From Candidatus Pacearchaeota archaeon (GTDB lineage Archaea > Nanobdellota > Nanobdellia > Pacearchaeales > DTIR01), in NCBI GenBank assembly GCA_016211995.1, contig JACRHU010000047.1, forward strand, positions 1 to 33,431: DNA of 33,431 nt, read 5' to 3'. The stretch's first letter is position 1. Each line of letters begins with the position of its first letter. Below, one piece after another: positions 7,697 to 30,882 of this stretch. Both the position numbers and the translations under genes were made by a program. Under the pieces are notes generated by a model. The model was not told where the DNA came from, ran no database searches, and saw only the letters and a list, made by a program, of their open reading frames with translations.

Positions 7697-7799
7697 ATCA
7701 AAAAACCTTTGGGTTTTTAGGATCCTGAAAACACCAAAAATTGATATTTTTGGATGCTGTCAAAAATCTTTGATTTTTGAAGTCTTTGATTTTCATGAT
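7697..7799. repeat. Nested double-hairpin palindromic element (GGATCC hub)
   Basis: AAAAACC-tttg-GGTTTTT, GGATCC, TGAAAA...TTTTCA enclosing a second unit CCAAAAAT/ATTTTTGG-atgctg-TCAAAAATC/GATTTTTGA. Confidence 0.75.
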
Positions 7800-7844
7800 G
7801 TATAAATTTATATTTTTCTAAAGATAATTATGTGCAAAGCTTTC

Positions 7845-7860
7845 AAAAACCTTATAAAGC
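7845..7860 (+). promoter_or_regulatory. BRE/TATA promoter of SRP RNA
   Basis: CAAAAACCTTATAAAG about 25 nt upstream of the RNA 5' end. Confidence 0.6.
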
Positions 7861-7879
7861 CTTAAGTCTGCATATTTTT

Positions 7880-8139
7880 GCAGACTAGACCGGCACGCCA
7901 GCCCTGTGCTGTCATGTCCGCGGGCTTTAAACAGGTCGCAAGGGAATGTGTCAATATTTTGTATACAGCCTTGTTTTTCAACTGCGAAGCTTTGTCCTGC
8001 TTGATCTTGCTTTTGCGAAACAGGTCAGGTCCGGAAGGAAGCAGCCTTAAACAATAGCTAAGGTGCTTGCAGGGTCGCAAAGTGGAGAAGAAATTCAAGT
8101 TAACTGTATAGGAAATATGCAGCTACTTCCCGAGTCTGC
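7880..8139 (+). ncRNA. ffs: Archaeal signal recognition particle (7S) RNA
   Basis: Helix 8 signature GGTCAGGTCCGGAAGGAAGCAGCC; terminal helix GCAGACT/AGTCTGC; Alu loops with complementary GCCC/GGGC; long helix 5; T-run after the 3' end. Confidence 0.95.
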
Positions 8140-8166
8140 ACTTATTTTTTTGAGTAATTAGTATCA

Positions 8167-8288
8167 CAAGTGATTGACATCACTTGCATTTGCTGGGCTA
8201 TTCGCGAAAATCTATGATTTTCGGGATCCCAAAAAGCTGGTTGCCTCCAGCAAAGCTGGAATGTTGAGCTTTTTGCGACAATCGCCCA
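8167..8288. repeat. Palindromic elements: CAAGTGAT/ATCACTTG hairpin plus GGATCC double-hairpin element
   Basis: 8224-8278 is identical over 55 bp to 18196-18250; 8168-8185 matches 16234-16251 at 17/18 in reverse orientation. Confidence 0.8.
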
Positions 8289-8363
8289 ATTATTTAGCAT
8301 TAAGTATATAGAGGGAATATTTAAAAATTAGGTATTCTATATATAATCAATAAAAGGGGTAGA

Positions 8364-8969
8364 ATGAAATCAAGAATAGCAAGAAAAGCACAATTCTATA
8401 TAATAGGAGCAGTCGCAATAGCAATTATTTTAGCTGGCTTAGTAACTCTTGTAAATTACAGTATAACAAAGCCAGAGCCTGTTAAATTCTATGATTTAAA
8501 CAAGCAACTGCATTATGAAACTACAAATATAATAAATTATGGAGTTTTGAATAATCAGGATGTGAATGCTACAATTAAAAAATTTATTGATGAGCAGTTT
8601 TTGCCATATATCAAACAAAAAGATCCTGATATTGAGTTAATTTACATTTATGGAAATAGCAGTGATGCTTCTGTTGTGAATTATGGTAAGGAGGCAATTT
8701 TTGTTTCAGGTTCTCAAATCTCTCCTGGGGGAGCAACAAGCACATCAACAGTTAGCATTGACATAGGTGGAACAACAGCAGAAAAAACAGTAGTACAAGC
8801 TACAAGATATTTCCAGCCCTTCTCAATGTTCTTGGCACCTTCAAGAGTTGTCAATGTTAAAATTGGCGATAAAAATTATGATTTCAAACTATCAGGCCAG
8901 CAACAATTTTTTGCAATACTAACAACAAAAAAAGGAAAAGAGACGTATGTTACAGCATCAGAAGGATAA
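8364..8969 (+). CDS. Pilin-like protein (class III signal peptide-like)
   Basis: RKA/QFYIIGAVAIAIIL N-terminus; first gene of pilin cluster. Confidence 0.75.
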   Translation: MKSRIARKAQFYIIGAVAIAIILAGLVTLVNYSITKPEPVKFYDLNKQLHYETTNIINYGVLNNQDVNATIKKFIDEQFLPYIKQKDPDIELIYIYGNSSDASVVNYGKEAIFVSGSQISPGGATSTSTVSIDIGGTTAEKTVVQATRYFQPFSMFLAPSRVVNVKIGDKNYDFKLSGQQQFFAILTTKKGKETYVTASEG

Positions 8970-9005
8970 ATAAAAAAAGCTTATGTAACAATACTAGAAG
9001 GATAA
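8934..9005 (+). repeat. Degenerate tandem copy of gene 3' end (36-bp period)
   Basis: Gene ends GKETYVTASEG*; next 36 nt read IKKAYVTILEG* in frame (25/36 nt identical). Confidence 0.75.
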
Positions 9006-9044
9006 AAAGCAAGAATTTTAAAGCGCTAATGTTATAAATATAAA

Positions 9045-9578
9045 ATGAGAGAAAATAAAAGAGGCATTTCAGAGCTAATTGCTTATGCTCTATTAGTGGG
9101 TTTGGCTATTTCATTGAGTGTTATTGTTTACATGTGGCTCGAGGTTTATGTTAAGCCTTCGTCAATAAACGTTTGTCCGAGTGGAACTAGCCTTATAATA
9201 GAAGATTATTCTTGTAGTCTATCAGGCATTCTCACTCTAAAGGTAAAGAACAAAGGACTTTTTAATGTAAGTGGATTTATACTTAGAATTAACAACAGGT
9301 CAAAACTAGGAGAACCTTTAGGAAATCCTATTTATAGATTAAGACCAACGACCGGACCTGGTGCAGGAGGAGATTTTTTTGTGTTTGGAGGAGATAATGA
9401 ACCATTAGCTCCTGGGTTGAATAAAGAGTTTACAGATATAGCATATTGCGGAACACTAACTGAAATTGAAATTCAGCCAATTAGACTTGAAGAAGGGATA
9501 GATGAGCCAATCTTATGCGACAAGGCAGTTATAAGGCAGAAAGTTAGTTTGTCATCTGGTTGTAAAATAGAATGTTAA
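9045..9578 (+). CDS. Archaeal type IV pilin-like protein
   Basis: KRG/ISELIAYALLVGLAI class III signal; paired Cys. Confidence 0.88.
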   Translation: MRENKRGISELIAYALLVGLAISLSVIVYMWLEVYVKPSSINVCPSGTSLIIEDYSCSLSGILTLKVKNKGLFNVSGFILRINNRSKLGEPLGNPIYRLRPTTGPGAGGDFFVFGGDNEPLAPGLNKEFTDIAYCGTLTEIEIQPIRLEEGIDEPILCDKAVIRQKVSLSSGCKIEC

Positions 9579-9615
9579 TAAAAAGATATTTAAATTATAT
9601 TAACTTGAAAATAAA

Positions 9616-10086
9616 ATGAAAAATAAAAAAGGGGTAGCTCCGGTTGTTGCAACAGTTCTTCTTGTTGCATTGACTATTGTATTAGCAGCAATAATATTCT
9701 TATGGGTTAGAGGATTTGTATCAGAGCAGATACTAAAATTTGGGCAGTCTGCAGAACAAGTATGCGATGAAATTAGTTTTGATGCTGCAATCACATCAGG
9801 TGAGGCAGGAGGTTTTATTTTAGATTTAACTAATAATGGACAGATTCCAATAAATGATTTTGATATAAAGAAGCAGCTAGACGGCAAATCAGAAATTGAA
9901 AGAATAACTGTTGGATTAGACAAAGGAGCCTCGCAACCAGTTAATATAAGATTTGATAGTGGCCTGCCAACCAGAATAACTGTGATTCCTGTTTTGCTTG
10001 GAACAGTTAAAGGAGGAGGAGCAAAATCCTTTAAATGTGCAGACAGCCTTGGAAAGATATTAGATGTCCCTCAATCTTGGGAATAG
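9616..10086 (+). CDS. Archaeal type IV pilin
   Basis: KKG/VAPVVATVLLVALTIVLA archaeal pilin N-terminus. Confidence 0.92.
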   Translation: MKNKKGVAPVVATVLLVALTIVLAAIIFLWVRGFVSEQILKFGQSAEQVCDEISFDAAITSGEAGGFILDLTNNGQIPINDFDIKKQLDGKSEIERITVGLDKGASQPVNIRFDSGLPTRITVIPVLLGTVKGGGAKSFKCADSLGKILDVPQSWE

Positions 10087-10151
10087 CAAGAGAAAGGTTT
10101 TTAAATTAATCATTCTTATAATAATAAAATAAATAAAAGAGGAAACAAATA

Positions 10152-10822: not shown

Positions 10823-11359
10823 ATGATAAACAAAAGAAAACTTGGGCAGATATGGGTTGAAACAGTTATATACACTCTAATCGGATTAGCTGTTATCGGC
10901 CTTCTTCTTGCTATTGCAAGGCCAAAAATAGCTCAAACCCAGGATGATTTTGTAATAAAGCAGACAATTAGTGCAATGAATGAACTTGACAAGAAAGTAA
11001 GTGAAGTTAAACAAGCAGTTGGCAATAGAAGGATTGTGGAATTCCAGCTTTCTAGAGGAACATTAACAATTGATTCTACAACAGAAACTATTTCTTGGGT
11101 GCTTACTGGAAGCAATTTTATGTTTAGCGAGCCTGGCACGCAAGCATCAATAGGCAGAATAAATGCACTAACAAAAAAAGTCTCAGATAAGTACGATGTT
11201 ACTTTAACAATGGATTACAATGGAATTATTTCAATGACTACTAATAATATAGATAATAAACTTGTAACTTTACAAACAGCAAAAACTCCTTATAACATAC
11301 TCATTGAAAATGTTGGTGAAGATAATGGAAAAGTAAAAATAGATATTTCTATTTCTTAA
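10823..11359 (+). CDS. Pilin-like protein
   Basis: KLG/QIWVETVIYTLIGL with Q+1 and E+5. Confidence 0.82.
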   Translation: MINKRKLGQIWVETVIYTLIGLAVIGLLLAIARPKIAQTQDDFVIKQTISAMNELDKKVSEVKQAVGNRRIVEFQLSRGTLTIDSTTETISWVLTGSNFMFSEPGTQASIGRINALTKKVSDKYDVTLTMDYNGIISMTTNNIDNKLVTLQTAKTPYNILIENVGEDNGKVKIDISIS

Positions 11360-11462
11360 TTTTTAAAAAGACAATGAAAAAATAAAAGTAGATACTACTA
11401 TTTCTTAATTTTTAAAAAGACAATGAAAAAATAAAAGTAGATACTACTATTTCTTAATTTTT
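11321..11462 (+). repeat. Tandem repeat, 49-bp period, derived from pilin 3' end
   Basis: Gene ends DNGKVKIDISIS*; two identical downstream copies read DNEKIKVDTTIS* (33/39 nt identical to the gene end). Confidence 0.9.
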
Positions 11463-11494
11463 CAACCAAGAAATAAAGAATCTTTTTTGATAAT

Positions 11495-11547
11495 AAGCTT
11501 TGCACATATTTTAGGTGAGATTATAGTCTCATTTATGTGCAAAGCTT
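11495..11547. repeat. MITE-like palindrome with GCTTTGCACATA/TATGTGCAAAGC ends
   Basis: 14-bp perfect terminal IR plus internal hairpin; same ends at 17325-17382 and a half copy near 7829-7842. Confidence 0.75.
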
Positions 11548-11574
11548 TAAAAATTTGAAATTCTTAAGTGAAAT

Positions 11575-14500
11575 ATGAAAAAGGGAGTGGTAGAAGAGGT
11601 GGAAAAGATAGAAATTAATCTCTCTCCAGTTGTTCCTTCTCTTCCTAGATTTAAAGATAAAACACAAATTGATGTGAGGTATATGCTTATATCTCCTTAT
11701 GTTTCTGCTCACATATACTGGAACAAAGAGCTTTCAGAAGTTGCTTATGAAATCGAAGAGCCAATGCTAACAGAACTAGAAAAGCAGCAGCTGGAAAAAT
11801 TGGAAAAAGGGATGCGCGAGCTAATCAATGTCAACTTACTTGTAGAAAAAAATGTAGACGCTATTTTAGAGTACATTAACAAAACTGCAAAATTACTCGC
11901 TTCAGAGCTTGGTTTGAAAATGACAAAAGATACATATAAAAAATTGTTCTATTATATCTTCAGAGATTTTGTTGGGTTAAATGAAATTGAGCCATTCTTA
12001 AGAGATTATTTTATAGAGGATATAGAGTGTAACGGGGTTGACACTCCTATCTATATAATACATAGGGTATACAGAAATCTCCGTACAAATATTGCTTTCC
12101 ATAATATAGATAATCTAGCAAGCTTTGTTGAAAAGCTTGCTCAAAGATGTGGTAGATACATCAGTTACGCTACTCCATTATTAGATGGCACTCTTCCAGA
12201 CGGTTCTAGAGTAAATGCTACATATACAGCAGATATTACATCAAGAGGTCCGACTTTTTGTTTCAAAGATGGTTATGTTCAGCTAAGTGATGGACGAATA
12301 AAAAATATAAAAGAATTATTTGAAGAGAGCAAAAAAAATTTTGGATTTAGAATCGAGAATGGAAATGAGATTGTTAAAGTTGCCAATATTAATTGTTGCG
12401 GTGTGGGGGAGAGAGATTTACAGCAAAAAGATTCTAGAATTGAGTCTATTATCAAACTAAAAGCACCTAAAAAACTTGTTAAAATTCATTTTGAAGATGG
12501 CGGAGAAATAGAAGTAACCTTAAATCATTTGTTTCATGTTGCTGGCAATTCGTTAGATCTTATTGAGGCAAGGAATCTTAAAAAAGATATGCTGATTCCG
12601 ATGCCAAGAAAATTGGAAGTTTCAGGATACAGGCAAAAAATAGATGTCTATTCAATAATAAAAGATTTTTCTTATCTTAAAAAAATATGTATAATCAATA
12701 CCCCCGCGGTAAAAAATATTGTAACTAGCGAGATGAAATCAGGAGGGAGAAATTTCAGGCAGGTTTTATCTCAGAAATATGGCGTTGAAGATTCTTATTT
12801 CTATGGAATAGTACATAAAGGAAATTCAATCTCTTTTACTATTCTGGATGGGATATGTAAACAACAAAATCTTAATTTCAATGACCTTGAAGAAATTTCT
12901 GTTAATGTTTATGGTGGAGGAACAAAAAATAAAACAAAATCAGTCAAAGTTCCAAGAGAAATTGATGAAGAGTTGGCTTATCTTACCGGTGCGTTGATAA
13001 GCGATGGCCATTTATCAAAAGAATATATAGACTTTTCGTGCTATGAGGATGGATTCAAAAAATCTGTAAAAGAAAAACTCTTAAACAAATTCGGCAGATT
13101 TGATTCTTATTGCAATGATAATAGAATTTATGTGTGTAATTTATTTGTCCCTTTCTTTTTCAATAAGCTTTTTGGCATTCCTATAGGCAAAAAATCTCCT
13201 ATCGTCAAAATCCCCGAGCTGATCTTCAAATCAGACAATAGAGTTATAGCGTCATTTATAAGGGGGTTATTTGATGGTGATGCCACTTGCAGGGCTGGTT
13301 TGAGCTACAAAACATACTCTAAATCTCTTGCAGAAGGTTTGACTTATCTTCTTGCAAGATTAGGAATATACTCTTATTTAAGAAAAACTGAAAAAGAATA
13401 TAGGGTTAATATACCTTCACCATACTATAAAAGATACAGAGATATGATAGGTTTTGATAGCATAAGCAAGACGAGTGACTTGAAAAGATTAGTAGAAAAG
13501 CAAGTAGAACATAAAACATTTATTAGACATGATAGAATCCCTGGTGCGCCGGTTATGGCTATTATAAACAGATTGGGCATAAAAAAGAAAGAGTTACTTA
13601 AAAATTGTTGTTTTAGTTATAACAGATTCCTTTATATGTCATTTTCAAAGGATTTTGTTCAAAAATTATTCGAGGAGATTACTAAGGATGAGAATGTAGG
13701 ACTTGTTAAGAAAGAATTAGAATATATAGATTGGCTACTAAACTCTAAACAAGAGTTTGTTAAAATTAGCAATATAGAGATAATCGATAATAAGGAACAA
13801 GTATATGATATAGAACTAGAACCTTGTAAATTTTTCATAGCAGGCAATAAACCGATGAATATATTTGATACAATAAGAAAATTTACAAAAATTCCATGGA
13901 CTCCTATTCAGCTAATTAGTTTAAACACATTAAGCCCTGAAATGCTCGCATATTTCTGGATTCTTATCCAATATAAATGTAATATACTAATCACAGGAGG
14001 AACAGCTTCAGGAAAAACTACTTTGCTTAATGCATTGGCATTCTTTATTCCGCCAGAAGCAAGAGTTGTCAGCATTGAAGATACAAGGGAGTTGAATTTA
14101 CCAAGAGAAAACTGGCTGCCGAATGTTGCAAGAACAGGCATAGGTGTTGGAGGTATAGGAGAGGTTGATTTATTTAGCCTTCTTAAAAATTCTTTCAGGC
14201 AGAATCCAAACTATGTTATTGTAGGAGAGGTCAGGGGAAAAGAGGCTTTTGTTTTATTTCAGGGAATGGCATCAGGACATCCATCAATCAGCACAATTCA
14301 TGCAGATTCTGTTGATACAGTTATCAAAAGACTTGAAACTCCACCAATTGAGTTATCACCAACATTAGTCAATACATTAGATGTTGTAGGAGTAATGACA
14401 CATGCTATAGTAAACAAACAAGAAACCAGAAGATTGAGAGAAGTAATTGAAGTAGTTAATGTCACACCAGAAGGAATTGCTATAACCAACACTCCATTTA

Positions 14501-14736
14501 TATGGAATGCAGCAGATGACAGATTCTATTTCAAAAAAGACAGCAGAGTACTTGAAAAAATAATGAATAGATATGGACTTTCAAAAGAAGAATTGTTGCG
14601 TGAATTTGATATAAGAACAAGAATACTTTTTAAGATGTTTCAGAATAAGATATTTGGTTTTGATGAAGTCCAGAGAATGATTAATGAATATTATAAAAAT
14701 CCTAAAGACGTTCTTACAAAATTAGGCTTAGTATAA
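11575..14736 (+). CDS. Type II/IV secretion (PilB/FlaI/TadA-like) pilus assembly ATPase, intein-containing
   Basis: IEDIECNG, TLPDGSRVN, GPTF|TIRKF, Walker A GGTASGKTT, SIEDTREL, RQNPNYVIVGEVRG, GHPSISTIHA; 516-aa extein. Confidence 0.96.
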   Translation: MKKGVVEEVEKIEINLSPVVPSLPRFKDKTQIDVRYMLISPYVSAHIYWNKELSEVAYEIEEPMLTELEKQQLEKLEKGMRELINVNLLVEKNVDAILEYINKTAKLLASELGLKMTKDTYKKLFYYIFRDFVGLNEIEPFLRDYFIEDIECNGVDTPIYIIHRVYRNLRTNIAFHNIDNLASFVEKLAQRCGRYISYATPLLDGTLPDGSRVNATYTADITSRGPTFCFKDGYVQLSDGRIKNIKELFEESKKNFGFRIENGNEIVKVANINCCGVGERDLQQKDSRIESIIKLKAPKKLVKIHFEDGGEIEVTLNHLFHVAGNSLDLIEARNLKKDMLIPMPRKLEVSGYRQKIDVYSIIKDFSYLKKICIINTPAVKNIVTSEMKSGGRNFRQVLSQKYGVEDSYFYGIVHKGNSISFTILDGICKQQNLNFNDLEEISVNVYGGGTKNKTKSVKVPREIDEELAYLTGALISDGHLSKEYIDFSCYEDGFKKSVKEKLLNKFGRFDSYCNDNRIYVCNLFVPFFFNKLFGIPIGKKSPIVKIPELIFKSDNRVIASFIRGLFDGDATCRAGLSYKTYSKSLAEGLTYLLARLGIYSYLRKTEKEYRVNIPSPYYKRYRDMIGFDSISKTSDLKRLVEKQVEHKTFIRHDRIPGAPVMAIINRLGIKKKELLKNCCFSYNRFLYMSFSKDFVQKLFEEITKDENVGLVKKELEYIDWLLNSKQEFVKISNIEIIDNKEQVYDIELEPCKFFIAGNKPMNIFDTIRKFTKIPWTPIQLISLNTLSPEMLAYFWILIQYKCNILITGGTASGKTTLLNALAFFIPPEARVVSIEDTRELNLPRENWLPNVARTGIGVGGIGEVDLFSLLKNSFRQNPNYVIVGEVRGKEAFVLFQGMASGHPSISTIHADSVDTVIKRLETPPIELSPTLVNTLDVVGVMTHAIVNKQETRRLREVIEVVNVTPEGIAITNTPFIWNAADDRFYFKKDSRVLEKIMNRYGLSKEELLREFDIRTRILFKMFQNKIFGFDEVQRMINEYYKNPKDVLTKLGLV
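12259..13869 (+). mobile_element. Intein (537 aa) with LAGLIDADG homing endonuclease, atypical C-terminal Asp
   Basis: Splits GPTF/TIRKF; starts CFKDG; block B VTLNH; YLTGALISDG and FIRGLFDGDA; block F VYDIELEPCKFF; ends NIFD, +1 Thr. Confidence 0.93.
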
Positions 14737-14758
14737 CTAAAATTAATTAGAGACAAAA

Positions 14759-14932
14759 ATGATATCAAAAGAGAAAGCGCAATTTCTCGCCCAGCTTATT
14801 CAGAGTATGCAAGAAGCTGCTTATGAGCTAGATAAGGCTATAAGAGAGACAGATTTTGCTAAAATTAAACGTGTTAAAGATTTTATTCTTGCTTTACAAG
14901 TTAAAATAACAGAGGTTACAAGAGAAAAATGA
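14759..14932 (+). CDS. Small helical protein (57 aa), not in ORF track
   Basis: MISKEKAQFLAQLIQSMQEAAYELDKAIRETDFAKIKRVKDFILALQVKITEVTREK; fills the gap and has ATGA overlap with next gene. Confidence 0.75.
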   Translation: MISKEKAQFLAQLIQSMQEAAYELDKAIRETDFAKIKRVKDFILALQVKITEVTREK

Positions 14933-16233
14933 CAATAGAATCTTTAAGAACTAATCTAATGCAGGAAAAACAATTAGTAGATAATATTCTTGTATTATAT
15001 GAGCAGTTTGAAAATGCAGCAGGAACAGAAAAAAATTTCTTCGCGAATGCGATTATTTCTTTGCTTAATCAGGTCGATATTATAAATAATTCTGTTCCAA
15101 GAATTTTAGATGAGATTAAATCAGCTAAGCAGCTTCCAATAGTTATCCAGAGAGAAGCAGAGATACAAATAGCAATTATCGGCCAGATTACACTCGATAA
15201 AAAAGATAAAAAAAAGTATCTTAAAGAGCTTGAGATAAGCAAAAGAGCAATTAATGAGCTGAAAAAAAAGACAAAAGAACCGAAAACCAGGGAAATAGAG
15301 GTTTTTAAAAAACCAAATCAGCTTGCTTCAGCTTCTTCTAAATTATTTGGAAGAATGTCTTTCAATCTTGTTGAAAAGGGCTCTTTTAAATTTATTAATA
15401 CCCAACTAAGAAAAGCAAATATGCCCTATCTTTTGTCTACTTATCTTTCACTGATGTTTTTTTTCACGCTTGTGGTATTTATTGTTTCAATATTGGCTGC
15501 TGTTTTATTCACTTTTTTTAAAGTTGGATATTTAGCAGGGCAATTTTTTCCTTCTTTTTCTTTAAATCTAGAAAATATAGGTCAGAGACTTTTGACTAAT
15601 ATAATGTATTCACTCTCATTGCCAATACTCACTTTCGCAGCATTTCTCTTGTATCCTTCAGGGGAAGCATCTTCTATAAAAACAAGAATAGACAATGAAC
15701 TACCCTTCGCGGTCTTGCATATGTCATCAATTGCTGGAAGTGGTGTTGAACCAAGCAGAATTTTTAGAATAATTGCCATGAGTAAAGAATACCCCGCAAT
15801 TGGAAAAGAGATTAGGAAAATTGTTAATCAAATAAATTTGTATGGCTATGACCTCATAACAGCTTTACGAAACACAGCAAAATCAACTTCTAATGATAGC
15901 TTAGCCGCATTGCTAAATGGACTTGCAACAAACATTTCTTCAGGAGGAACTTTGAAAGACTATCTAGACAAAAAAGCTTCAGATACAATACTTGATTACA
16001 AACTTTCAAGAAAAAGATACAGTAATATGGCTGAAACTTCTATGGATATTTACATTGGTGTTTTAATTGCAGCACCTTTAATTTTCATGATTCTTTTGAT
16101 AATGATTAATGCAATCGGAATAGCATTTGTAGGATTAAATCTAATAACTATCTCACTTTTAATTGTCGGAGGCACTATCCTAATAAATATAGGTTTCCTG
16201 ATTTTCCTTAAATTCAGGCAACCACCACAATAA
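14929..16233 (+). CDS. Type II secretion system F / TadC-like pilus platform protein
   Basis: IDNELPFAVLHMSSIAGSG, EIRKIVNQINLYGYDLITAL; multiple TM helices; follows ATPase. Confidence 0.92.
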   Translation: MTIESLRTNLMQEKQLVDNILVLYEQFENAAGTEKNFFANAIISLLNQVDIINNSVPRILDEIKSAKQLPIVIQREAEIQIAIIGQITLDKKDKKKYLKELEISKRAINELKKKTKEPKTREIEVFKKPNQLASASSKLFGRMSFNLVEKGSFKFINTQLRKANMPYLLSTYLSLMFFFTLVVFIVSILAAVLFTFFKVGYLAGQFFPSFSLNLENIGQRLLTNIMYSLSLPILTFAAFLLYPSGEASSIKTRIDNELPFAVLHMSSIAGSGVEPSRIFRIIAMSKEYPAIGKEIRKIVNQINLYGYDLITALRNTAKSTSNDSLAALLNGLATNISSGGTLKDYLDKKASDTILDYKLSRKRYSNMAETSMDIYIGVLIAAPLIFMILLIMINAIGIAFVGLNLITISLLIVGGTILINIGFLIFLKFRQPPQ

Positions 16234-16279
16234 AAGTGATATCAATCACTTATATTATAAATTTAAAAATAAATAAAAA

Positions 16280-17146: not shown

Positions 17147-17286
17147 CATCAATAGTAACTTTTAGATTATGCTCTTAGTCAAACTTACTGTAACCACTTA
17201 ACTGATGACTAGCAACTTTTAAATTATACTCCTAGCCAAGCCTACTGTAACCACTTAACTGATGACTAGCAACTTTTAAATATACT
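17117..17286 (+). repeat. Tandem repeat, 55-57-bp period, derived from gene 3' end plus downstream sequence
   Basis: Gene ends ILVKPPVPT*; copies read LLVKLTVTT* (stop 17199-17201) and LLAKPTVTT* (stop 17256-17258), each followed by ACTAGCAACTTTTAAAT. Confidence 0.85.
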
Positions 17287-17314: not shown

Positions 17315-17392
17315 TCTAAAATGGGCTTTGCACATAATCAACATAAAATTAATAGTCACTTACTCACATATATGTGCAAAGCATCTAAAATG
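17315..17392. mobile_element. MITE-like insertion with 9-bp flanking direct repeat
   Basis: TCTAAAATG (17315-17323), GCTTTGCACATA...TATGTGCAAAGC, TCTAAAATG (17384-17392); 69-bp in-frame addition. Confidence 0.75.
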
Positions 17393-18115: not shown

Positions 18116-18259
18116 CCATTAATTGTTATCGACTCGGCATTGACCAGCCGAGACAAATGGAAGCCTATCATCAAGAAAATCCTAAAGGATTTTCAGGATC
18201 CCAAAAAGCTGGTTGCCTCCAGCAAAGCTGGAATGTTGAGCTTTTTGCGAATCGGCTTC
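18116..18259. repeat. Palindromic element cluster (GGATCC hub)
   Basis: CTCGGC/GCCGAG hairpin; GAAAATCC/GGATTTTC; GGATCC; CAAAAAGCT..AGCTTTTTG; outer GAAGCC/GGCTTC; 55-bp identity to 8224-8278. Confidence 0.8.
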
Positions 18260-18276
18260 TACCTTAGAAAAGAAAA

Positions 18277-19574: not shown

Positions 19575-19597
19575 AAATATCAAAGAATACATATAAA

Positions 19598-22240
19598 ATG
19601 GTAGAAATAAAAAAAATTTCAAAATATGAATGGTTGATTCCAAAAGAAGGAGCAATGAATGTTCCTGTTGTAATTTTTGCAAGCGAGAAGCTTCTTGAAA
19701 AAATGAAGGAAGATATAACTTTACAGCAAGCTATGAATGTTGCCCAACTTCCAGGAATTGTTGAAAAAAGTATTGTGCTTCCTGACGCCCACCAAGGATA
19801 TGGAATGAGTATTGGGGGAGTTGCTGCCTTTGATTTAAATTCTGGAGTAATCAGCCCCGGTTGTGTAGGTTATGATATCGACTGCTCGGTCAGGCTTTTA
19901 TCTACAAATCTAAACAATAAAGATATTAAAGGTAAAGAGGAGCAAATTTCTTCTCAATTATTTAGGGATGTTCCTTCAGGGGTAGGTGAAAAAGGAAGAA
20001 TTAGGCTTACAAAAGAAGAGTTAGATGAAGTTCTAAAAAATGGGGCTCAATGGGCTGTGAAAAAAGGTTACGGAGAAAAAGAAGATTATGTGCATACTGA
20101 AGAAGAAGGAAAAATGAAAGAGGCAAATCCTGAATATGTTAGTGAAAGGGCCAAAATAAGAGGCATGCCACAATTAGGAAGTTTAGGGGCTGGAAATCAC
20201 TTCTTAGAAGTTCAGGAAGTGGATGAGATTTATGACAAGGAAATAGCCAGGAAATTTGGGATTAAAGAGAAAGGACAAGTAACAATTATGATTCATTGTG
20301 GGAGCAGGGGATTAGGACATCAAGTAGCTTCTGATTACATAAAATTAATGGAAGATGAATATGGTTTTGAAAATTTGCCAGACAGAGAATTAATTAATGC
20401 TCCTATTTCAAGCGAGTTAGGAAAGAAATATTTTGGGGCTATGGCTGCTGCAGTTAATTTTGCATTTGCAAATAAACAGCTTATAACTCATTGGGTACGA
20501 GAAGCTATGAAAAGAATTTTCCCTAATTTTAAGGCAGAGGTTATATATGAAGTTTGCCATAACATAGCAAAGTTTGAAACACATAACATAAATGGAGAAG
20601 AAAAGAAAGTTCTTATAATGAGAAAGGGAGCTACTAGGTCTTTTGGTCCAGGAAGAAAAGAACTGCCAAAGGATTATATAGATATTGGGCAACCAGTATT
20701 GATACCTGGAAGCATGGGAACATCAAGCTACATTTTAGTAGGAACGAAAAAAGCAGAAGAATTAACTTTTGGGAGCACGTGTTTTACTGGTGATACTAAA
20801 ATAATAACAGATAAAGGAATAATAACCTTAAAAGAAATTAATGAAAGATTTCAAAATGGAGAAAAATTTCTTGCTCTATCAATAAATGAGTCTAATTTAG
20901 AATTAGAATGGAAACCTATAATGAATACATTCAAAAGAAAATCAGATGTCGTAGAAATTTCTATTTCTCAGACAAACCGTTCAAACTTAAGCAAACTAAG
21001 AACTACAAGAGACCATAATTTCTTGACATTAAAAAATTTTAATTTGATTGGTGAGGAAATTGAAAAAATTATTTCAAAAGAAAAAATGTTGATTGCAGTT
21101 GATTCTTTAAAAAGTGATATTCAAAAGAGTATAAATCCCAATTTAGCATATCTTGTTGGAGCTTTAGTTACAGATGGGTATGTTTATTTGGATAAGAGAA
21201 GAGGAAAGATAACATTTACCCAAAAGAAAGTCGCCAAAAAACTCGATTTTATTTATCACGTACAAAATTGTTTTAGAGAGTGTTTTAATACAGAATTGAG
21301 AGAGTATAAAACAAAATTTGGGGGGGGAACTATAAGAGGCAGGCAAATTTATGGGGAGGGAACAGATTTTATTTGTTGCCAGAAAAATCCAGCAATTGAA
21401 ATTTTAAATATAACTTCTAATCTTCCTAAGTGGGTTATGGAGCTTGATAAAGAAGCAAATTTTAACTTTTTAGCTGGAATTATTGACGGTGATGGTGCTT
21501 GGAATCCTAATAGACAAGTTTTAGATATCTTTACAGGGGATGAAAATGTTGCTGAAGCAATACTTCTATCATGTTTGAAAATGGGGATTTTACCATACAT
21601 CTCAAAACAAAGGGGCTCTTGTTTTGTAATTCAAATATCAGAAAAAGAAGATTTAATTTTTGGGTATACAAAGAGAGTTAAAGGAATTTTTAGAAAAAGG
21701 AAATACGGACAAAAATTATTTTCTGCAAAACAAATGTTTGAGGGTGTTGAAGTTAGATGGCCATTTTTACATAAAGCAATAAGAAATAATTTGATAAGTT
21801 ATGAGCAAATTCTAAAACATATTCATAAATATCCTGAAATTAAAAAAGAAGTTAAAAAGCTAATAGAGTCCCCTATTAGAATGTTAAGAGTTAAAAAATT
21901 AAAAGATGTTGGTATTAGTGAATTGTATAATATTGAGGTAGCAGACAATCATAATTATGTTGTTCTTACTGATATGTTTATGCCTATTTTTGTTAAAAAT
22001 TGTCATGGAGCAGGTAGAGTTATGAGTAGACATGAAGCCTTAAGACATCAAAGGGGGGAAGAAGTAAAATCTAATCTAAAAAAACTGGGAATAGAAGTAA
22101 AGTCTGGAAGCTGGAAAGGATTGGCAGAAGAGGCTCCTGAATCATATAAAGACATTGAAGAGGTAGTAAAAACAAGTCATGAGCTGGGTATAGGCCGATT
22201 AGTAGCAAAGGTTAAGCCATTAATTGTCATTAAGGGCTAG
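19598..22240 (+). CDS. rtcB: RNA-splicing ligase RtcB, intein-containing
   Basis: PDAHQGYG, VGYDIDC, GNHFLE, HCGSRG, HNIAK, RKGAT, PGSMG, FGST|CHGAGR, EEAPESYK; 473-aa extein. Confidence 0.97.
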   Translation: MVEIKKISKYEWLIPKEGAMNVPVVIFASEKLLEKMKEDITLQQAMNVAQLPGIVEKSIVLPDAHQGYGMSIGGVAAFDLNSGVISPGCVGYDIDCSVRLLSTNLNNKDIKGKEEQISSQLFRDVPSGVGEKGRIRLTKEELDEVLKNGAQWAVKKGYGEKEDYVHTEEEGKMKEANPEYVSERAKIRGMPQLGSLGAGNHFLEVQEVDEIYDKEIARKFGIKEKGQVTIMIHCGSRGLGHQVASDYIKLMEDEYGFENLPDRELINAPISSELGKKYFGAMAAAVNFAFANKQLITHWVREAMKRIFPNFKAEVIYEVCHNIAKFETHNINGEEKKVLIMRKGATRSFGPGRKELPKDYIDIGQPVLIPGSMGTSSYILVGTKKAEELTFGSTCFTGDTKIITDKGIITLKEINERFQNGEKFLALSINESNLELEWKPIMNTFKRKSDVVEISISQTNRSNLSKLRTTRDHNFLTLKNFNLIGEEIEKIISKEKMLIAVDSLKSDIQKSINPNLAYLVGALVTDGYVYLDKRRGKITFTQKKVAKKLDFIYHVQNCFRECFNTELREYKTKFGGGTIRGRQIYGEGTDFICCQKNPAIEILNITSNLPKWVMELDKEANFNFLAGIIDGDGAWNPNRQVLDIFTGDENVAEAILLSCLKMGILPYISKQRGSCFVIQISEKEDLIFGYTKRVKGIFRKRKYGQKLFSAKQMFEGVEVRWPFLHKAIRNNLISYEQILKHIHKYPEIKKEVKKLIESPIRMLRVKKLKDVGISELYNIEVADNHNYVVLTDMFMPIFVKNCHGAGRVMSRHEALRHQRGEEVKSNLKKLGIEVKSGSWKGLAEEAPESYKDIEEVVKTSHELGIGRLVAKVKPLIVIKG
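20780..22000 (+). mobile_element. Intein (407 aa) with LAGLIDADG homing endonuclease
   Basis: Starts CFTGDT; block B TTRDH; YLVGALVTDG and FLAGIIDGDG; block F LYNIEVADNHNY; ends VKN, +1 Cys. Confidence 0.94.
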
Positions 22241-26200: not shown

Positions 26201-26837
26201 AGGTGCTTGTAAAGGTGCAGATAATACATATAACACAGCAGATGATTGTTGCCCTAGAGACTATAAATGTGATCCTGATCCAACAATCAATAAATGTATT
26301 CCACGAACAACAGAGTGCAGTGGCTGGACAGATGAAGCTACTTGTATAGCTAATGGCTGTTTCTGGAAAGATGGCATCTGCCAGCCTAGTTCAGTTATGT
26401 TATCATGCTCTGATTATTTAACTCAAGAGTTATGTGAGACAGATCCTTTAACACTTGGAAAAGAAGGAGGAGTTGGTTTAGGAACAGAAATCTGTGGAAC
26501 AACACAAGGAAATTATATTATAACTAGCTGTGCATGCAAGTGGGTAAACAATTTATGCCAATTGAATTATCTTTTACAAAAGGCAATTAATCCATATGAG
26601 CCACCAACAGCGGTATGTGACAAATATTTTTCATTGACTCCTTGTGTAGATGGAAAAAGAATAGAGAGCTGGATTGCTACAAGAGACCCAACAGCTTCAG
26701 AAGACCCATTATGTTCTGATGGATCCAAAGAGATTACTTGTGGATTTGCTTCATCAAAACTTCCTTTCTTTGGAACAATTAGCTTCATAATTGCTGTTGC
26801 ATTAATAGTTCTGTATTATTCTTTGAGAAGAAGATAA
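23295..26837 (+). CDS. Large membrane-anchored surface protein with three SLH-like modules, PKD-like domains and a Cys-rich region
   Basis: Signal peptide; VTQGC..YCP..LTRAVVAIFL, VTLGC..YCPNNYLTRVELAVFI, GITTGC..FCP..SRGMVA; FSWLFDDG..PGPHWAKLKV; C-terminal TM plus RRR. Confidence 0.85.
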   Translation: MVSKKAITFIFLSSLIISSVFLILISQNIAKAVLPTTEPGESFSFTIAADESWDDPRTTPAGQPFNLTLFTIDTPHNRDGISSTTNPGYPGIFAYTYNEGIFFNNKSQMTIIPSAWGYNTNTHGIYDLVYGASSGWYPDTRRSCTTSAPCTLDYLNPYPDSKHIIEMNVSCINRGFTLRIGSTNFEGRCPYTTNLSIISNINNITQMRGLDSSTGAYQNTAFFFINVTYRMNHTQPIVSDIQNGEVSLSDGKKSLGSVSSFLASKLTHGGNVINPSVSSSDEFVKLTIENVAGTPTVFACLDGDRNTVCDKDEQCPSAEYINIDDARNVPETDYSSPLYRKQVFFDICKDTDSAHPERNGYFNESWQLFAKNVTQGCVITSNRFLYYCPGPLLTRAVVAIFLHNAYDFKSLPNKFGSDYFDDILASGISNTMNRSIGFIWEKKVTLGCCAGAECSGGTGTLFYCPNNYLTRVELAVFIVRTANSTDSHRSDSVCSNRVVCFNDIPSSIQFTDMTLNGDPSCGTGSPPKVCYDPEFINSTRWIKWKGITTGCTATTFCPTVQASRGMVAKMLGSGLQYINIQQVIPSQGDLIWADMHIPPIYGIISAERNDSVQLIWKNMDPTFENNKIKFTINDFDTSTSNPDCTTSWGDKIFYTTATKLPDNTVQANITWRARTCFNPTERNPTNLNFSVQRVDSSLQPISSSIDSSSITINSPDNDASPTAVIKVPKYNFPLTIYGPTNLDGNIFNIEPPQTSVSVGFQSDSQDADDYLIEQWKIWNDSTADNPITGTGRQFSSTFSKYVSGQYWVNLTVTEDGASYNRNKKASALSLFYVNQTNANDPPFTWISNPKEGEEFEANPIWFNATYSWDDETPFINLNFSWLFDDGVKYSAKGFVGANLSKNFSSPGPHWAKLKVIDNNPIPLSSKASVNFLIKGCKLGDIYEFKNSCFSDRIHYCTSTLEIKNTMNDLGACKGADNTYNTADDCCPRDYKCDPDPTINKCIPRTTECSGWTDEATCIANGCFWKDGICQPSSVMLSCSDYLTQELCETDPLTLGKEGGVGLGTEICGTTQGNYIITSCACKWVNNLCQLNYLLQKAINPYEPPTAVCDKYFSLTPCVDGKRIESWIATRDPTASEDPLCSDGSKEITCGFASSKLPFFGTISFIIAVALIVLYYSLRRR

Positions 26838-26878
26838 TAGTAGTTCTATATTATTCTTTAAGGCAAAGAAGAAAATAA
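26802..26878 (+). repeat. Degenerate tandem copy of gene 3' end
   Basis: Gene ends LIVLYYSLRRR*; 26837-26878 reads IVVLYYSLRQRRK* with three synonymous differences. Confidence 0.8.
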
Positions 26879-27137: not shown

Positions 27138-29930
27138 ATGAAAAGAACATTTATGTCAGAAATACAAAGCATTTCTGAGCATCCTAAAAACCAGACTAAC
27201 AAATCACACTCTAAAGAACGTGGTAAAAATCAAAAGGTTTTTTTGATTTTGATAATTTTAGTAGGCATAGCTTTTCTAAGTCTTGCAAATGCACTTGTTA
27301 TTACTGGTGCTCTGAATACATTTAATTTAACTAAAACAAGCTATGCTCCGGGGGAGTTACTGCAAGGAACAATGAATATAAGCTTGAGAGATGAGCTGAT
27401 TGATAGCATTGTGAAAACAAGTTTGATTAATTTTCAGACAAAACTTATTGATTTTTTAAATAATACTGACCTAGTTGCAGGAAAAGATTATATATGCAAT
27501 CCTGCCAGTTGTGGAAGTTTCTATGATGTTAGAGGAACTCCAGAAAAAATCAAGACAATAATGAGTAAGATAGTCGGTCCCATGGTTGTAGGCAAGAATC
27601 TAGAAATCAAACCCCAAGCATTAACATTTAATGTTTCAGCAGCAGAAACTAGCTCTTTAATATTCACAAGCAGCCCTGTTAAAATTGATTTGCTCAATGA
27701 TGGAACAATAGACTGGATGTATCTTGATGCATCAGATTCTTTTGCTGCAAAATTATACAGCCCTTGTTACACAGAAGTGAATGCTACAAGAGACTTTTTA
27801 ATTGATGCAAATGGTTTTTGCCAGAAAATAAATTTACCAGAATCTTCAAAATTTAAGATTAATGCATTAGTCAGAAAAACAGGAACAGCAGAAGGAAATT
27901 TATATGTTTCGCTATATGACAAGGAAGCAGATTATGCAAGTGACTGGTGTGATATGCCAGAGCCTACTTCTACAACTTATTCAGAGATAAGCTGTATAGC
28001 AGATTTTACTTCTACTGGTGACGGAGAGTATTATGTATGTATAAAAGATACAGAGTCAGATTATGCTTACAAGATAAAAGGTGAAACAACTGATGAAAAA
28101 ATATCCAAGGAAGCATGTCCTGGAGGATATAGGGGATTGCCTCAGGATGCTAGTTCAGATAAAGCAGATGTTGCAATATCCGTGAATGCAGCGTATATTG
28201 CTCCATTTACAAAAACCCTTGTATTTAATTCAGAAGAATTTGATAAAACACATTCTGGAACATTACGAGAGTACTTGCAAGATTATATTTCAAACAAATA
28301 TGGAAATGATTGCATTACAAATAAATGCATAATTCCAATAAATATAACATCAAAAATTTCTATTAGGATAAGCAATTTAGATATTGCTTATTGCTCTGGC
28401 TCTTTATGCGAAACAACTGAATATATGTATGATGTTGTAACGAGCAATGCGAAAATTAAGATGAATTATACAATGCTACCAATTCAAGCTGCAAATCTTT
28501 CTGCTCCAAAAACTCCGGCAAATTACACTGCCAGAGTTTTTATAGGAGACAAAGAAATAGGCACAGCAGAGATAACTGTAGAAAAAGTTCCTATTGTTGT
28601 GGCAATTACCCCTAAAATAATTCCTGCTGCGACACCCACAATAATTATTGCGCTTGTAAATTCTACATTCAATGTAACTAAATTTGAATGGACTTTTGGT
28701 GACGATAGCAGTGAAACAACAACATCAAATACTGTCAGCCATACCTACACAAGCACAGGAACATTCAAAATTTCTGTTAAAGTAACTGATATTAGAGATA
28801 AGAGTTCAACAAGTTATTTCACAGTCATAGCAGGCTCACCAAAAGATATGATTAACTCTTCAATAACTCAGAAAACTAAGCAAGTTGATGATTTTGTTTC
28901 TACATTAAACAGCTATCCTGATTGGGAAATTCCTATAATAAAACAGGTAGCAGGGATAGATGGGATTAAAGCTACGATAAATACAGCCAAGACAAGTTTT
29001 AGTACAGCAACAACAGAAGAAGAATATTTACAAATCATGTCTACCTTATCTTCTTTATCAATCCCTGTAACTATATCGGCTGTATCAACTACTAGTGAAT
29101 TTGAATATCCTGTTGACCCTAATAAAGTTGATCCAGATTTGGTAAGCAAGGCTGGAGCAGGAAGTTATGATCCAGAAAAGACAGATGAAGTAAGAAACGC
29201 AATTGCAGGATGGGCAACAGATAATTTGAATATCAAATTACAAGGGACTGTTTTTGATATCAAAAAAGAAGATAAAACTGATGATTATGTTTCTGTAATC
29301 AATCTGAAAGTAAACCCTAAAACAAGCATAAATGATTCTTTTCTTATTATTTTAGCTGACTACCAAAAAACAAAATTTGCAGATAATTATAATCAGAAGA
29401 ATATCGACGGTTATATAGCAATTACATTAAAATCTGGCAATTTTGAATTTGCAATTCCTGGCAGAATAGACCTTTCTGATTTTGACTTATTTATCTCTCC
29501 AAACTTTGAGGATTTAGGGGCAGGGATAGTAATAGAATGCAATGACAATGGAATATGCGAGTCAGATTTAGGAGAGAATTACAAGAACTGCAGAGTGGAC
29601 TGCAAACCAATTGGTATAGGCATTTTCCTGGCAATAGGATTAATTGTATTTGTTTTTATTCTTTATTTATTCTTAGGCTGGTGGTATGAAACTAAATATG
29701 AATCTTATTTATTCAAGAACAGGCAGGATTTAGCTAATATAATCTTATTCGTTTCTAATGCATTGAATCGTGGAGTAGATGAAAAAGAGATGCGGGAAAA
29801 ACTGAAAAAAGCAGGATGGAATGGCGAGCAGATAGAATATGCAATAAATAAAGTTAAAGGGAAAAAGATGGGAATGCCTGCTTTAAGAAGAGGAATAAAA
29901 AAGAAGCAAATAGAGCTAGGAAGAAGATAG
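27138..29930 (+). CDS. Large membrane-anchored PKD-domain surface protein
   Basis: Signal peptide; FEWTFGDD..HTYTSTGTFKISVKVTD PKD motif; CNDNGICESDLGENYKNCRVDC; TM; cytoplasmic LKKAGWNGEQIEYA. Confidence 0.88.
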   Translation: MKRTFMSEIQSISEHPKNQTNKSHSKERGKNQKVFLILIILVGIAFLSLANALVITGALNTFNLTKTSYAPGELLQGTMNISLRDELIDSIVKTSLINFQTKLIDFLNNTDLVAGKDYICNPASCGSFYDVRGTPEKIKTIMSKIVGPMVVGKNLEIKPQALTFNVSAAETSSLIFTSSPVKIDLLNDGTIDWMYLDASDSFAAKLYSPCYTEVNATRDFLIDANGFCQKINLPESSKFKINALVRKTGTAEGNLYVSLYDKEADYASDWCDMPEPTSTTYSEISCIADFTSTGDGEYYVCIKDTESDYAYKIKGETTDEKISKEACPGGYRGLPQDASSDKADVAISVNAAYIAPFTKTLVFNSEEFDKTHSGTLREYLQDYISNKYGNDCITNKCIIPINITSKISIRISNLDIAYCSGSLCETTEYMYDVVTSNAKIKMNYTMLPIQAANLSAPKTPANYTARVFIGDKEIGTAEITVEKVPIVVAITPKIIPAATPTIIIALVNSTFNVTKFEWTFGDDSSETTTSNTVSHTYTSTGTFKISVKVTDIRDKSSTSYFTVIAGSPKDMINSSITQKTKQVDDFVSTLNSYPDWEIPIIKQVAGIDGIKATINTAKTSFSTATTEEEYLQIMSTLSSLSIPVTISAVSTTSEFEYPVDPNKVDPDLVSKAGAGSYDPEKTDEVRNAIAGWATDNLNIKLQGTVFDIKKEDKTDDYVSVINLKVNPKTSINDSFLIILADYQKTKFADNYNQKNIDGYIAITLKSGNFEFAIPGRIDLSDFDLFISPNFEDLGAGIVIECNDNGICESDLGENYKNCRVDCKPIGIGIFLAIGLIVFVFILYLFLGWWYETKYESYLFKNRQDLANIILFVSNALNRGVDEKEMREKLKKAGWNGEQIEYAINKVKGKKMGMPALRRGIKKKQIELGRR
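27154..27247. repeat. Double-hairpin element inside the coding N-terminus
   Basis: TCAGAAAT/ATTTCTGA, GCATCC hub, AAAAACC...GGTTTTT; same architecture as the intergenic copies. Confidence 0.65.
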
Positions 29931-30084
29931 AGAGAAATAAAGAGAGATAAAATAGAATAAAAAATAGAAAAACGAAAGATTTAATAATCATAATTGGCAA
30001 GATTAAAACTTAAACAAAAGAAAGAGAGTAGAAATAGATAACCAAATAAAATTAAAACTTAAACAAAAAATAAAAAGGTGAAAA

Positions 30085-30732
30085 ATGCAGATAAAAATAA
30101 TCCCGAATTTTTTTAAGAGAATTTTCGCTTCATTATTCAAGAAAAAGAAGCACATTCAGCTTGGTTTTTATGGACCTCCAAATGCAGGAAAAACCTCTCT
30201 TGCTAACAGAATATGCAAAGATTGGACAGGCGAAGAGCTAGGAACAGTTACAAAGATTCCTCATGAAACAAGAGAGATACAAATCAAAGAGAAAGTGGAT
30301 ATTAATTTTAAAGGAAGACAGCTGACTTTCAAGCTTGTAGACACACCAGGGATTGCTACAAAAATAGATTACGAAGAGTTTTTGAAATTCGGCCTAACAA
30401 AAAAAGAAGCTAAAGGTAGAGCAAAAGAGGCAACAAAAGGAGTCATTGAAGCAATTAAATGGCTTGATGACATGGATGCTATTATTGTTGTCTTGGACGC
30501 AACATTAAACCCATATAGCCAAGTTAATATAACTATAATCGGAAATATTGTTGCAAGAAGAATTCCTGTGCTTATAGTTGCTAATAAAATTGATTTGCAT
30601 AAAGCAGATACTAAGAAGATTGAGGCTGCTTTTCCAGAATACGAGGTAGTTGGAATAAGCGCAAAGTTAGGGAAGAATATGGAAGAATTTTACGAATCAC
30701 TTTTCAGGCTTTCAAAAAAGAGGAAAGGATAA
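30085..30732 (+). CDS. oapA: Era-like small GTPase (OapA/ArvA-like)
   Basis: GPPNAGKT, IPHETRE, DTPG, NKID, ISAK; AKEATKGVIEAIKWL; next to DUF2073-like gene. Confidence 0.88.
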   Translation: MQIKIIPNFFKRIFASLFKKKKHIQLGFYGPPNAGKTSLANRICKDWTGEELGTVTKIPHETREIQIKEKVDINFKGRQLTFKLVDTPGIATKIDYEEFLKFGLTKKEAKGRAKEATKGVIEAIKWLDDMDAIIVVLDATLNPYSQVNITIIGNIVARRIPVLIVANKIDLHKADTKKIEAAFPEYEVVGISAKLGKNMEEFYESLFRLSKKRKG

Positions 30733-30750
30733 AAGGAGGTTGAAAGATAA

Positions 30751-30882
30751 AAGCAAATGCATTAGTAGCTAATGTGACAATAAGCGAGCCATGACAAGCT
30801 CGCACATTTGCAAGCAATCATAAAAACTAAAATGTTTTTAGGATCCTAAAAATCGTAAGATTTTTATGATGTCAATTGCTTG
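30751..30882. repeat. Nested palindromic elements
   Basis: CAAGCAAT...ATTGCTTG hairpin enclosing TAAAAAC/GTTTTTA-GGATCC-TAAAAATC/GATTTTTA; preceded by GCAAATG..CATTTGC enclosing two hairpins. Confidence 0.78.

Follow-up and report, generated by a model that had tools for sequence, protein, structure and literature searches.

The double-hairpin loci of the window

The DNA analysed here, referred to as the window, is the entire contig C26 (33.4 kb) of genome assembly GCA_016211995.1 (G000) from a Candidatus Pacearchaeota archaeon. The assembly consists of 86 contigs with 0.92 Mb and 32.5% G+C, is 78% complete, and breaks at repeats. Pfam matches in the window identify a type IV pilus locus and genes for archease, RtcB, a GTPase, and OapB, and the sole Rfam match there is the archaeal signal recognition particle (SRP) RNA at 7878-8141. 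An initial annotation had described five loci in which two A-run/T-run hairpins are joined by a 6-nt hub, and had interpreted them as copies of a structure-defined, non-autonomous mobile family. All five loci are present where they had been placed (Table 1) and, as had also been noted, no transposase is detected in the window with Pfam.

A covariance model (R1) was built from 40 aligned copies of the element other than the window loci, and the window loci were scored with it. The five loci do not represent a single uniform element but two sub-families and composites. The boundary AT|CA...TG|AT, which had been ascribed to two copies, holds in loci 1 and 5. The 55 identical bp attributed to another pair are found at 8224-8278 and 18196-18250, as part of a match of 63 nt (98%). 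Loci 2, 3, and 5 are each surrounded by an additional outer stem of 4-8 bp. The element that had been described as sitting within another one is an AGCATCC/GGATGC-hub doublet between the right-hairpin arms of a GGATCC element; a composite of this kind, about 100 nt long, recurs three times in the genome, twice on contig C76 and as a variant at C46. A short-loop allele of locus 3 is located at C65:6432-6478. Despite its low R1 score, locus 4 by eye clearly belongs to the AGCATCC-hub sub-family, its long loop having decayed.

Table 1. Double-hairpin elements and cassette copies in the window, with R1 matches and z scores of single-strand DNA folds
Feature	Position	Strand	R1 match (bits)	Fold z	Parts and remarks
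Locus 1, composite element	7697..7799	.	7693-7759 (41)	-4.9	ATCA 7697-7700; hairpin 1 7701-7718; hub GGATCC 7720-7725; outer right hairpin, arms ~7726-7733 and 7785-7795; TGAT 7796-7799
Nested doublet in locus 1	7734-7780				hairpin 7734-7753; hub region ATGCTG 7754-7759; hairpin 7760-7780
Cassette right part (..TTATGTGCAAAGC)	7800..7840	+			abuts composite element
Locus 2, doublet with long-loop right hairpin and outer stem	8195..8287	.	8202-8278 (44)	-4.5	outer stem GGGC 8195-8198 / GCCC 8284-8287; hairpin 1 8205-8223; hub GGATCC 8224-8229; hairpin 2 8230-8275 with inner CCAGC-AAA-GCTGG hairpin; CGA flank 8276-8278
Empty cassette copy, 49 nt	11497..11545	.			
Empty cassette copy, 58 nt	17325..17382	.			
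Locus 3, doublet with the same long-loop right half and outer stem	18160..18259	.	18170-18251 (47)	-4.3	outer stem GAAGCC 18160-18165 / GGCTTC 18254-18259; hairpin 1 18175-18194; hub 18196-18201; hairpin 2 18202-18247
Locus 4, AGCATCC-hub doublet, 93 nt, in frame in open reading frame (ORF) 27138-29930	27155..27247	+	27199-27251 (24)	-2.9	hairpin CAGAAATAC-aaa-GCATTTCTG 27157-27177; hub 27178-27184; right hairpin, arms 27185-27192 and 27236-27244 with decayed 43-nt loop module between; TGAT 27244-27247
Locus 5, canonical doublet in 8-bp outer stem	30811..30882	.	30813-30874 (72)	-4.9	outer stem CAAGCAAT 30811-30818 / ATTGCTTG 30875-30882; hairpin 1 30821-30840; hub GGATCC 30841-30846; hairpin 2 30847-30866; TGAT 30867-30870
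Partial cassette	33201-33241				

Abundance and structure of the hairpin units in the genome

The initial annotation had proposed a scan of the genome with a covariance model. Applied to G000, R1 gave 148 matches at at least 82 distinct places, a lower bound with the best 150 candidates scored, and further copies are thus present genome-wide. Because 12 of 93 elements are located within 300 nt of a contig end, compared with 5.2 expected, the copy number is probably underestimated. The assembly contains 97 GGATCC sites, about 70 of which are flanked by two hairpins with the structure x-A(4-6)-yz / loop / z'y'-T(4-6)-x'. Both hairpins are canonical at 55 of these sites, and the remainder of the approximately 70 are mostly long-loop or composite variants. 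With a strict doublet pattern, 38 occurrences per strand were counted in the genome, and none with the pattern reversed. Perfect A/T-run hairpins number 413, versus about 107 in shuffled sequences, and 121 arrays of two or more hairpins (105 doublets, 14 triplets, and 2 quartets) were counted, versus 8-9 doublets in shuffles.

The alignment of 40 copies has the frame ATC(A/G)-hairpin-GGATCC-hairpin-(T/C)GAT. Pairing is observed in 91% of its alignment cells, whereas it drops to 36-60% with the partner slid. Stem covariation, which had been claimed from the window alone, holds in the genome: 104 cells are changed on both sides, compared with 30.9 in shuffled alignments, and none of 500 shuffles reaches 104.

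Sub-families are distinguished by their hubs and flanks, namely GGATCC (ATCA..TGAT), GGAACC/GGTTCC (ATCA..TGTAA), forms with GTTTCC and GGACCC hubs, and AGCATCC/GGATGCT (ATGT-CAGAAAT hairpin .. TGAT), the last with about 35 copies (37 listed, 36 by a stricter pattern). A four-hairpin composite of about 105 nt is present in at least nine copies. Without its two hairpins, the backbone ATCA-GGATCC-TGAT reads as a perfect palindrome; put another way, each hairpin has a closure of ATC..GAT with a single mismatch inside it, and G-GAT-CC results where two such units overlap in AT. It is the single-hairpin unit, rather than the doublet, that behaves as the module. The 49 doublets analysed comprise 98 hairpin cores, 78 of them distinct, and 11 cores are combined with at least two different partners; one right half, identical over 52-55 nt, is joined to four different left halves and flanks. 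The units are about 25-30 nt long, and every unit carries T4-7 runs on both strands. An outer stem as a constant third helix was considered and rejected, because an inverted repeat of at least 6 nt encloses only 18 of 48 copies (about 9 expected).

Filled and empty insertion sites

The genome has a second repeat family, 58-bp cassettes in which inverted arms GCTTTGCACATAA and TTATGTGCAAAGC enclose an AT-rich core. A pattern search found 19 inverted pairs genome-wide, 14 of which are 49-58 nt long and empty, and five longer. Cassettes are often located just upstream of genes, of the SRP RNA, and of a likely tRNA. The cassette 13-mer occurs 44 times in G000, twice in the relative G004, and in none of 19 other relatives. 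As for the cassette itself, it may serve as a bidirectional promoter or operator specific to the lineage, or be a MITE (a miniature transposable element with inverted repeats).

The cassette family is a hot spot, that is, a recurrent target, for insertion of the hairpin elements, and it allowed the comparison of filled and empty sites that the initial annotation had suggested: next to the 14 empty cassettes, at least seven carry inserts at exact positions. A near-identical 56-nt AGCATCC-hub doublet is inserted at TTTAT^GTGC in cassettes C16, C22, C49, and C67, three of which are 114 nt long, C67 being the fourth. These inserts are identical at 52-56 of 56 positions, whereas the surrounding cassette parts agree at only 33-49 of 58. 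At C64 an empty cassette matches the cassette part of the filled C16 at 58 of 58 positions, and the flanks of the two are unrelated. A GGATCC doublet of 50-51 nt is inserted at GAATT(T)^ATAC in three further cassettes, as judged against four aligned empty ones.

The junctions are ambiguous by 4 nt (ATGT) at TTTAT^GTGC and by 1 nt at GAATT(T)^ATAC, with no longer duplication in either case, and thus there is no consistent target duplication. A target-site duplication of 2 bp (AT) or 4 bp (ATGT) was considered; it fits the AGCATCC-hub inserts and was rejected because it fails for the GGATCC cassette inserts and for most right flanks of AGCATCC-hub copies. The left flank of the AGCATCC-hub copies, including the one in the window, is almost always ..TTAT, which looks like a preferred target or a flank needed for movement. 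The left junction of locus 4, ATTTAT^GTCAG, matches the cassette insertion point.

Orthologous sites were compared in the sister genera g4 and g5, and three were found empty. In genus g4 (G003 and G004), in which the GTPase protein is 80% identical, the site of locus 2 is empty, the spacer between SRP RNA and the next gene measuring 60-76 nt versus 222 nt in the window. The GTPase-OapB spacer that holds locus 5 is without the element in G003, G004, and G005, and the PKD-domain protein of G003 and G004 lacks the approximately 31 residues that correspond to locus 4. A fourth site is filled in G003, and R1 with filters off gave a single significant match in 44 kb of orthologous loci, at the equivalent of 18116-18276. 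The copies are therefore not fixed at orthologous positions without empty sites. Locus 4 is not intergenic; it occupies codons 6-37 of ORF 27138-29930 and is free of stop codons, and the start codon is preceded by a Shine-Dalgarno-like GGGG. The signal-peptide n-region of the encoded PKD-domain surface protein is lengthened by about 31 residues by the hairpin element.

Nested forms are frequent in the genome. The long loop of loci 2 and 3 contains a CCAGC..GCTGG hairpin, an inner CCACAC..GTGTGG hairpin is found inside AGCATCC-hub copies, one of which is nested three deep, and a TCAGAAAC..GTTTCTGA hairpin, elsewhere closed by a loop of 5-6 nt, has GGATCC doublets in its loop. The proposal that the elements preferentially insert into existing palindromes was borne out in part. 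The frequent nesting, the doublets in the TCAGAAAC..GTTTCTGA loop, and the occurrence of outer stems at about twice the control level agree with it, whereas the best-defined insertion points are at the inner edge of a cassette arm and not at a palindrome centre.

Distribution among relatives and placement relative to genes

The GGATCC form was found in none of 40 relatives. With R1 (E <= 1e-4), related forms with other hub and flank letters were detected in 14 of 60 relatives and none in the other 46, so that the spread is patchy and lineage-specific. The relatives follow the hub logic of G000 in different letters, namely TCC..GGA with hub GGACCC and ATG..CAT with hub GCATGC. Scoring the best 88 candidates and counting both strands, R1 matches number at least 43 in G001, 24 in G005, 14 in G031, 11 in G028, 10 in G010, and 7 in G004, and genomes across the order carry between 0 and at least 82 copies each. 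R1 matched at one place only when run on related metagenome contigs (236 kb). A metagenome scan with the neighbouring T2SSF protein gave at least 30 loci, the best being a partial match at 56% identity, and no close strain. Viral contigs gave one weak and unrelated match. Searched for across GTDB, the exact GGATCC pattern yielded 30 scattered single matches that are mostly chance-like, and related elements were seen in a few DPANN genomes, at 1-6 places each. No report of such repeats in DPANN archaea was found in a literature search, the supplements of the cited papers lying outside it.

With respect to genes, 71 of 78 elements are located outside ORFs. Of the copies flanked by genes on both sides (61), 47 lie between co-directional, 11 between divergent, and 3 between convergent genes, which roughly follows spacer length; convergent gene pairs account for 15% of the spacers and 9.6% of the spacer length. 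The AGCATCC-hub sub-family, which is asymmetric, has no bias in its orientation to genes (18 versus 13).

Interpretation and alternatives

The initial annotation had likened the five loci to repetitive extragenic palindromic sequences (REP) and bacterial interspersed mosaic elements (BIME), or to Rickettsia palindromic elements (RPE). The number of copies, the covariation of their stems, and the filled and empty sites support its reading, and we consider it likely, with a probability of roughly 70%, that the elements are non-coding, non-autonomous, structure-defined mobile DNA repeats that have multiplied in this DPANN archaeon.

A number of observations weigh against such mobility. In the 78%-complete assembly no match was found to Y1_Tnp (PF01797), IS110 DEDD, DDE_Tnp_1, or resolvase, and for TnpB only sub-threshold matches to a zinc-ribbon model. 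Y1 is missing from several element-bearing relatives, some of them element-rich and the one-contig genome G004 among them, and G001, of a sister genus, has IS200-like copies whose GC-rich end hairpins are unlike these elements. Gene conversion is, in principle, a possible source of the identical inserts in diverged cassettes. Most hairpins have a sequence of their own but pair perfectly (78 distinct of 98 cores), which is unusual for a recent burst and could result from host selection or template-switch correction instead. The G003 site orthologous to 18116-18276 is filled by a diverged double hairpin (L110 2340-2450, G003:C6, minus strand) with its own outer stem CTCTTT..AAAGAG. As the position has been kept across genera and the sequence has not, not every copy is recent, which fits long retention or host function. 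In the contigs of three groundwater DNA runs from one study, which stop at the elements, no population-level empty site was found.

Co-occurrence with an HUH/Y1 transposase, for which the initial annotation had advised to look, was not found in the 78%-complete assembly of G000 and amounts to a weak association across relatives: 6 of 14 relatives with elements have Y1, versus 6 of 46 without. A link to a transposase via the IS200-like copies of G001 and G033 was rejected, as the end hairpins in G001 are GC-rich and unrelated. A truncated IS200-like Y1 gene (L101 1505-1954, G001:C7) lies about 100 nt from two double hairpins of the G001 type with hub GGTCCC; the full-length G001 copy (L100) has no such neighbour. 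The assembly of G000 contains no DNA repeat longer than 800 bp. Six genes have elements on both sides, one of them encoding a Fic-motif protein, and none is transposase-like by eye and by sequence motifs, no family search having been made.

If the elements are mobile, their building block would be a single hairpin of about 25 nt, written as C-N-(x A4-6 yz, loop of 3-7 nt, z'y' T4-6 x')-N-GAT. Such a unit would land after a T-rich site usually ending in AT, thereby producing the closure ATC...GAT, and its 3' end ...GAT would recreate the landing site, which could allow units to pile up side by side. Two units overlapping in AT would give the hub G-GAT-CC, other unit types would give GGAACC, AGCATCC, GTTTCC, and GGACCC, and units landing in the loops of earlier hairpins would give the nested forms. 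The precise insertion, the constant 5' flank, the absence of a duplication, the subterminal hairpins, and the taste for other repeats agree with descriptions of REP/BIME (PMC3733652) and of PATE/SMR-A repeats (PMC3119063) and suggest movement via single-stranded hairpin DNA, which might be carried out in trans by a shape-reading enzyme of the HUH/Y1 type or of an unrecognised type. Covariation would then reflect the need to remain a hairpin for copying. U-tracts reportedly govern archaeal termination (PMC8716108). Because every unit carries a T-run on both strands, bidirectional termination is likely, and the elements would probably also stop archaeal transcription from either side, be it as a side effect or as a later host use.

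The hairpins may also be moved by other means than the known mobilisers of small repeats, by a structure-specific DPANN enzyme that has not yet been recognised, or by replication-linked template switching at extruded AT-rich hairpins, both of which we regard as unlikely. Template switching, if true, would copy units into hairpin loops and keep the stems perfectly paired, and either mover would mean that a transposase-free process builds Russian-doll hairpin arrays, which the reduced genome would then employ as intergenic punctuation. A different and doubtful explanation holds that the elements are host-functional intergenic modules, acting as bidirectional terminators or insulators or as stabilisers of RNA 3' ends, that are selected by the host and spread by recombination. 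The T4-7 runs on both strands of every unit, given the termination at U-tracts reported for archaea (PMC8716108), the strong covariation of the stems, the one site kept across genera with changed sequence, and the almost always intergenic position are all in line with it. However, the elements are not enriched between convergent genes, where the need for terminators is greatest (3 of 61, with convergent pairs making up 15% of spacers), and 11 are found between divergent genes. Host modules would further leave unexplained the conserved ATC/GGATCC/GAT letters, the lineage-specific hub codes, the nesting, the in-frame gene copy, and the identical inserts at one exact point in another repeat, and most relatives are without elements. 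A reading as terminators only was rejected as the main explanation, the placement data arguing against a terminator origin.

The perfect palindrome formed by the backbone ATCA-GGATCC-TGAT without its hairpins would suit a binding or recognition site, either for a DNA-binding protein such as one of 11 TrmB-family regulators or for a restriction-modification-like reader of GATC/GGATCC. The genome contains 11 such TrmB-like paralogues, and GATC is avoided genome-wide (992 sites versus 2448 expected) yet central in the elements. This explanation is nevertheless very improbable: a Dam-type methylase was looked for in G000 and none was found, hubs in other sub-families and in relatives are not palindromic, the conserved letters enclose hairpin sequences of high variability, and the precise insertions and the nesting remain unexplained by it. 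That the elements are genes for small structured RNAs with a three-way junction is hardly credible, even though folds with an outer stem and two hairpins reach z scores near -4.5 and the stems covary, because Rfam gave no match in the window besides the SRP RNA, scores are equal on both strands, orientation to genes is unbiased (18 versus 13), an outer stem of at least 6 nt is found in only 18 of 48 copies, and the make-up is modular, nested, and recombinant.

The avoidance of GATC in G000 was estimated with a Markov model (observed/expected ratio 0.41), by which the remaining 4-bp palindromes range from 0.78 to 1.31; by our estimate, the element hubs hold about one tenth of all GATC sites in the genome. 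The 11 paralogues are about 245 residues long and were judged TrmB-family-like by eye from their N-terminal helix-turn-helix (e.g. C19:5143-5889 and C1:3412-4152), and their number is large given a 0.9-Mb genome.

Comparison with known repeat families

By analogy, the elements would be the archaeal counterpart of bacterial REP/BIME, and they are probably selfish. Dimers and heterodimers, insertion into palindromic targets, and transposase-less families are described for REP sequences (PMC3733652). The present elements share with REP/BIME (REPIN), as presented there, short imperfect-palindrome units that are mostly intergenic and occur as singletons, dimers, and clusters, with heterodimers of different stems or loops. 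Likewise shared according to the same source are the location of some families inside larger palindromic targets, occasional intragenic copies, families without a dedicated transposase, and an abundance that is very unequal between related genomes. REP/BIME units are 20-40-bp imperfect palindromes that are repeated many times and mainly extragenic, and the elements of G000 agree with this, with units of about 25-30 nt at at least 82 places and 71 of 78 outside ORFs. The elements differ from REP/BIME in that no GTAG/CGTC tag is found in the 40-copy alignment, the closure being ATC...GAT, in their archaeal host with a reduced genome, in A-run/T-run stems instead of GC-rich pairs, in the 6-nt hub that joins units in place of the 20-100-bp spacers of BIME, in the frequent nesting, and in that no REP-associated tyrosine transposase (RAYT), a Y1 HUH enzyme whose gene typically has REPs on either side, was found in the 78%-complete assembly.

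In Haloquadratum walsbyi, palindrome-associated transposable elements (PATE) include terminal-only versions of 52 bp, and SMR-A repeats enter palindromes without target duplication, as stated in PMC3119063. The elements of G000 resemble both: they are archaeal and transposase-free, have palindromes near their ends, and show neither terminal inverted repeats nor a target duplication; the terminal-only versions of about 52 bp with two palindromes and the repeats that prefer palindromes of other mobile elements are further parallels (PMC3119063). PATE ends, on the other hand, are described there as shared with resident IS605-type transposons, whereas no IS200/IS605 or TnpB gene was found in G000. 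A classical MITE has terminal inverted repeats that match a DDE transposon and a fixed target-site duplication. The elements differ from it in that their termini have no more than CA..TG or CAG..CTG in common, a consistent duplication is lacking, and DDE_Tnp_1 and IS110 are absent from the assembly.

RPE are palindromic repeats that are able to sit in frame within a protein-coding gene. Locus 4, a 93-nt in-frame copy in the N-terminal region of the PKD-domain surface protein, is similar in this regard; unlike RPE, most copies in G000 are intergenic, and one in-frame case was examined. Mitochondrial double-hairpin elements and repetitive hairpin-forming elements, as described in PMC2800124, also consist of two adjacent and often AT-rich hairpins with conserved stems and variable loops. 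By the same account, tandem insertion gives rise to double or multiple hairpins, the elements are patchy among close relatives and lack flanking duplications, and their mechanism is unknown, all as here (PMC2800124). They belong to the organelle genomes of eukaryotes, and a sequence relation is not expected. The family thus lacks the REP tag and does not conform to the definitions of PATE and MITE, yet it works like all three.

DPANN archaea have small genomes and are usually described as streamlined. More than 100 selfish-looking repeats are found in the spacers of this genome of about 1 Mb; they fragment its assembly and have lengthened a surface protein by 31 residues. What makes the family interesting is mainly the clean evidence of insertion, a unit of one hairpin, the nested forms, and the lack of a detected enzyme, and the clean filled/empty pairs together with the one-hairpin unit make it a good system for palindromic-repeat movement without a visible transposase. 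The family is also relevant to whether archaeal terminators are provided by repeats of this kind. These repeats account for contig breaks and for some start codons that were called wrongly, and annotators should mask them.

Additional observations in the window

A different hairpin type, CAAGTGAT-tgac-ATCACTTG, is located at 8167-8186, directly after the terminal T-run of the SRP RNA, and a relative of it at 16229-16263 follows the gene at 14929-16233. Its half-sites ATCAC/GTGAT resemble the flanks of the double-hairpin elements in reversed order. Tandem duplications in spacers just after genes were observed at 11298-11481, 17148-17261, 26803-26872, and 29999-30083, with periods of 49, 57, 35, and 49 nt, respectively. 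According to Pfam, the PilB-like secretion ATPase (11575-14736) and RtcB (19598-22240) both contain inteins with a LAGLIDADG homing-endonuclease domain.

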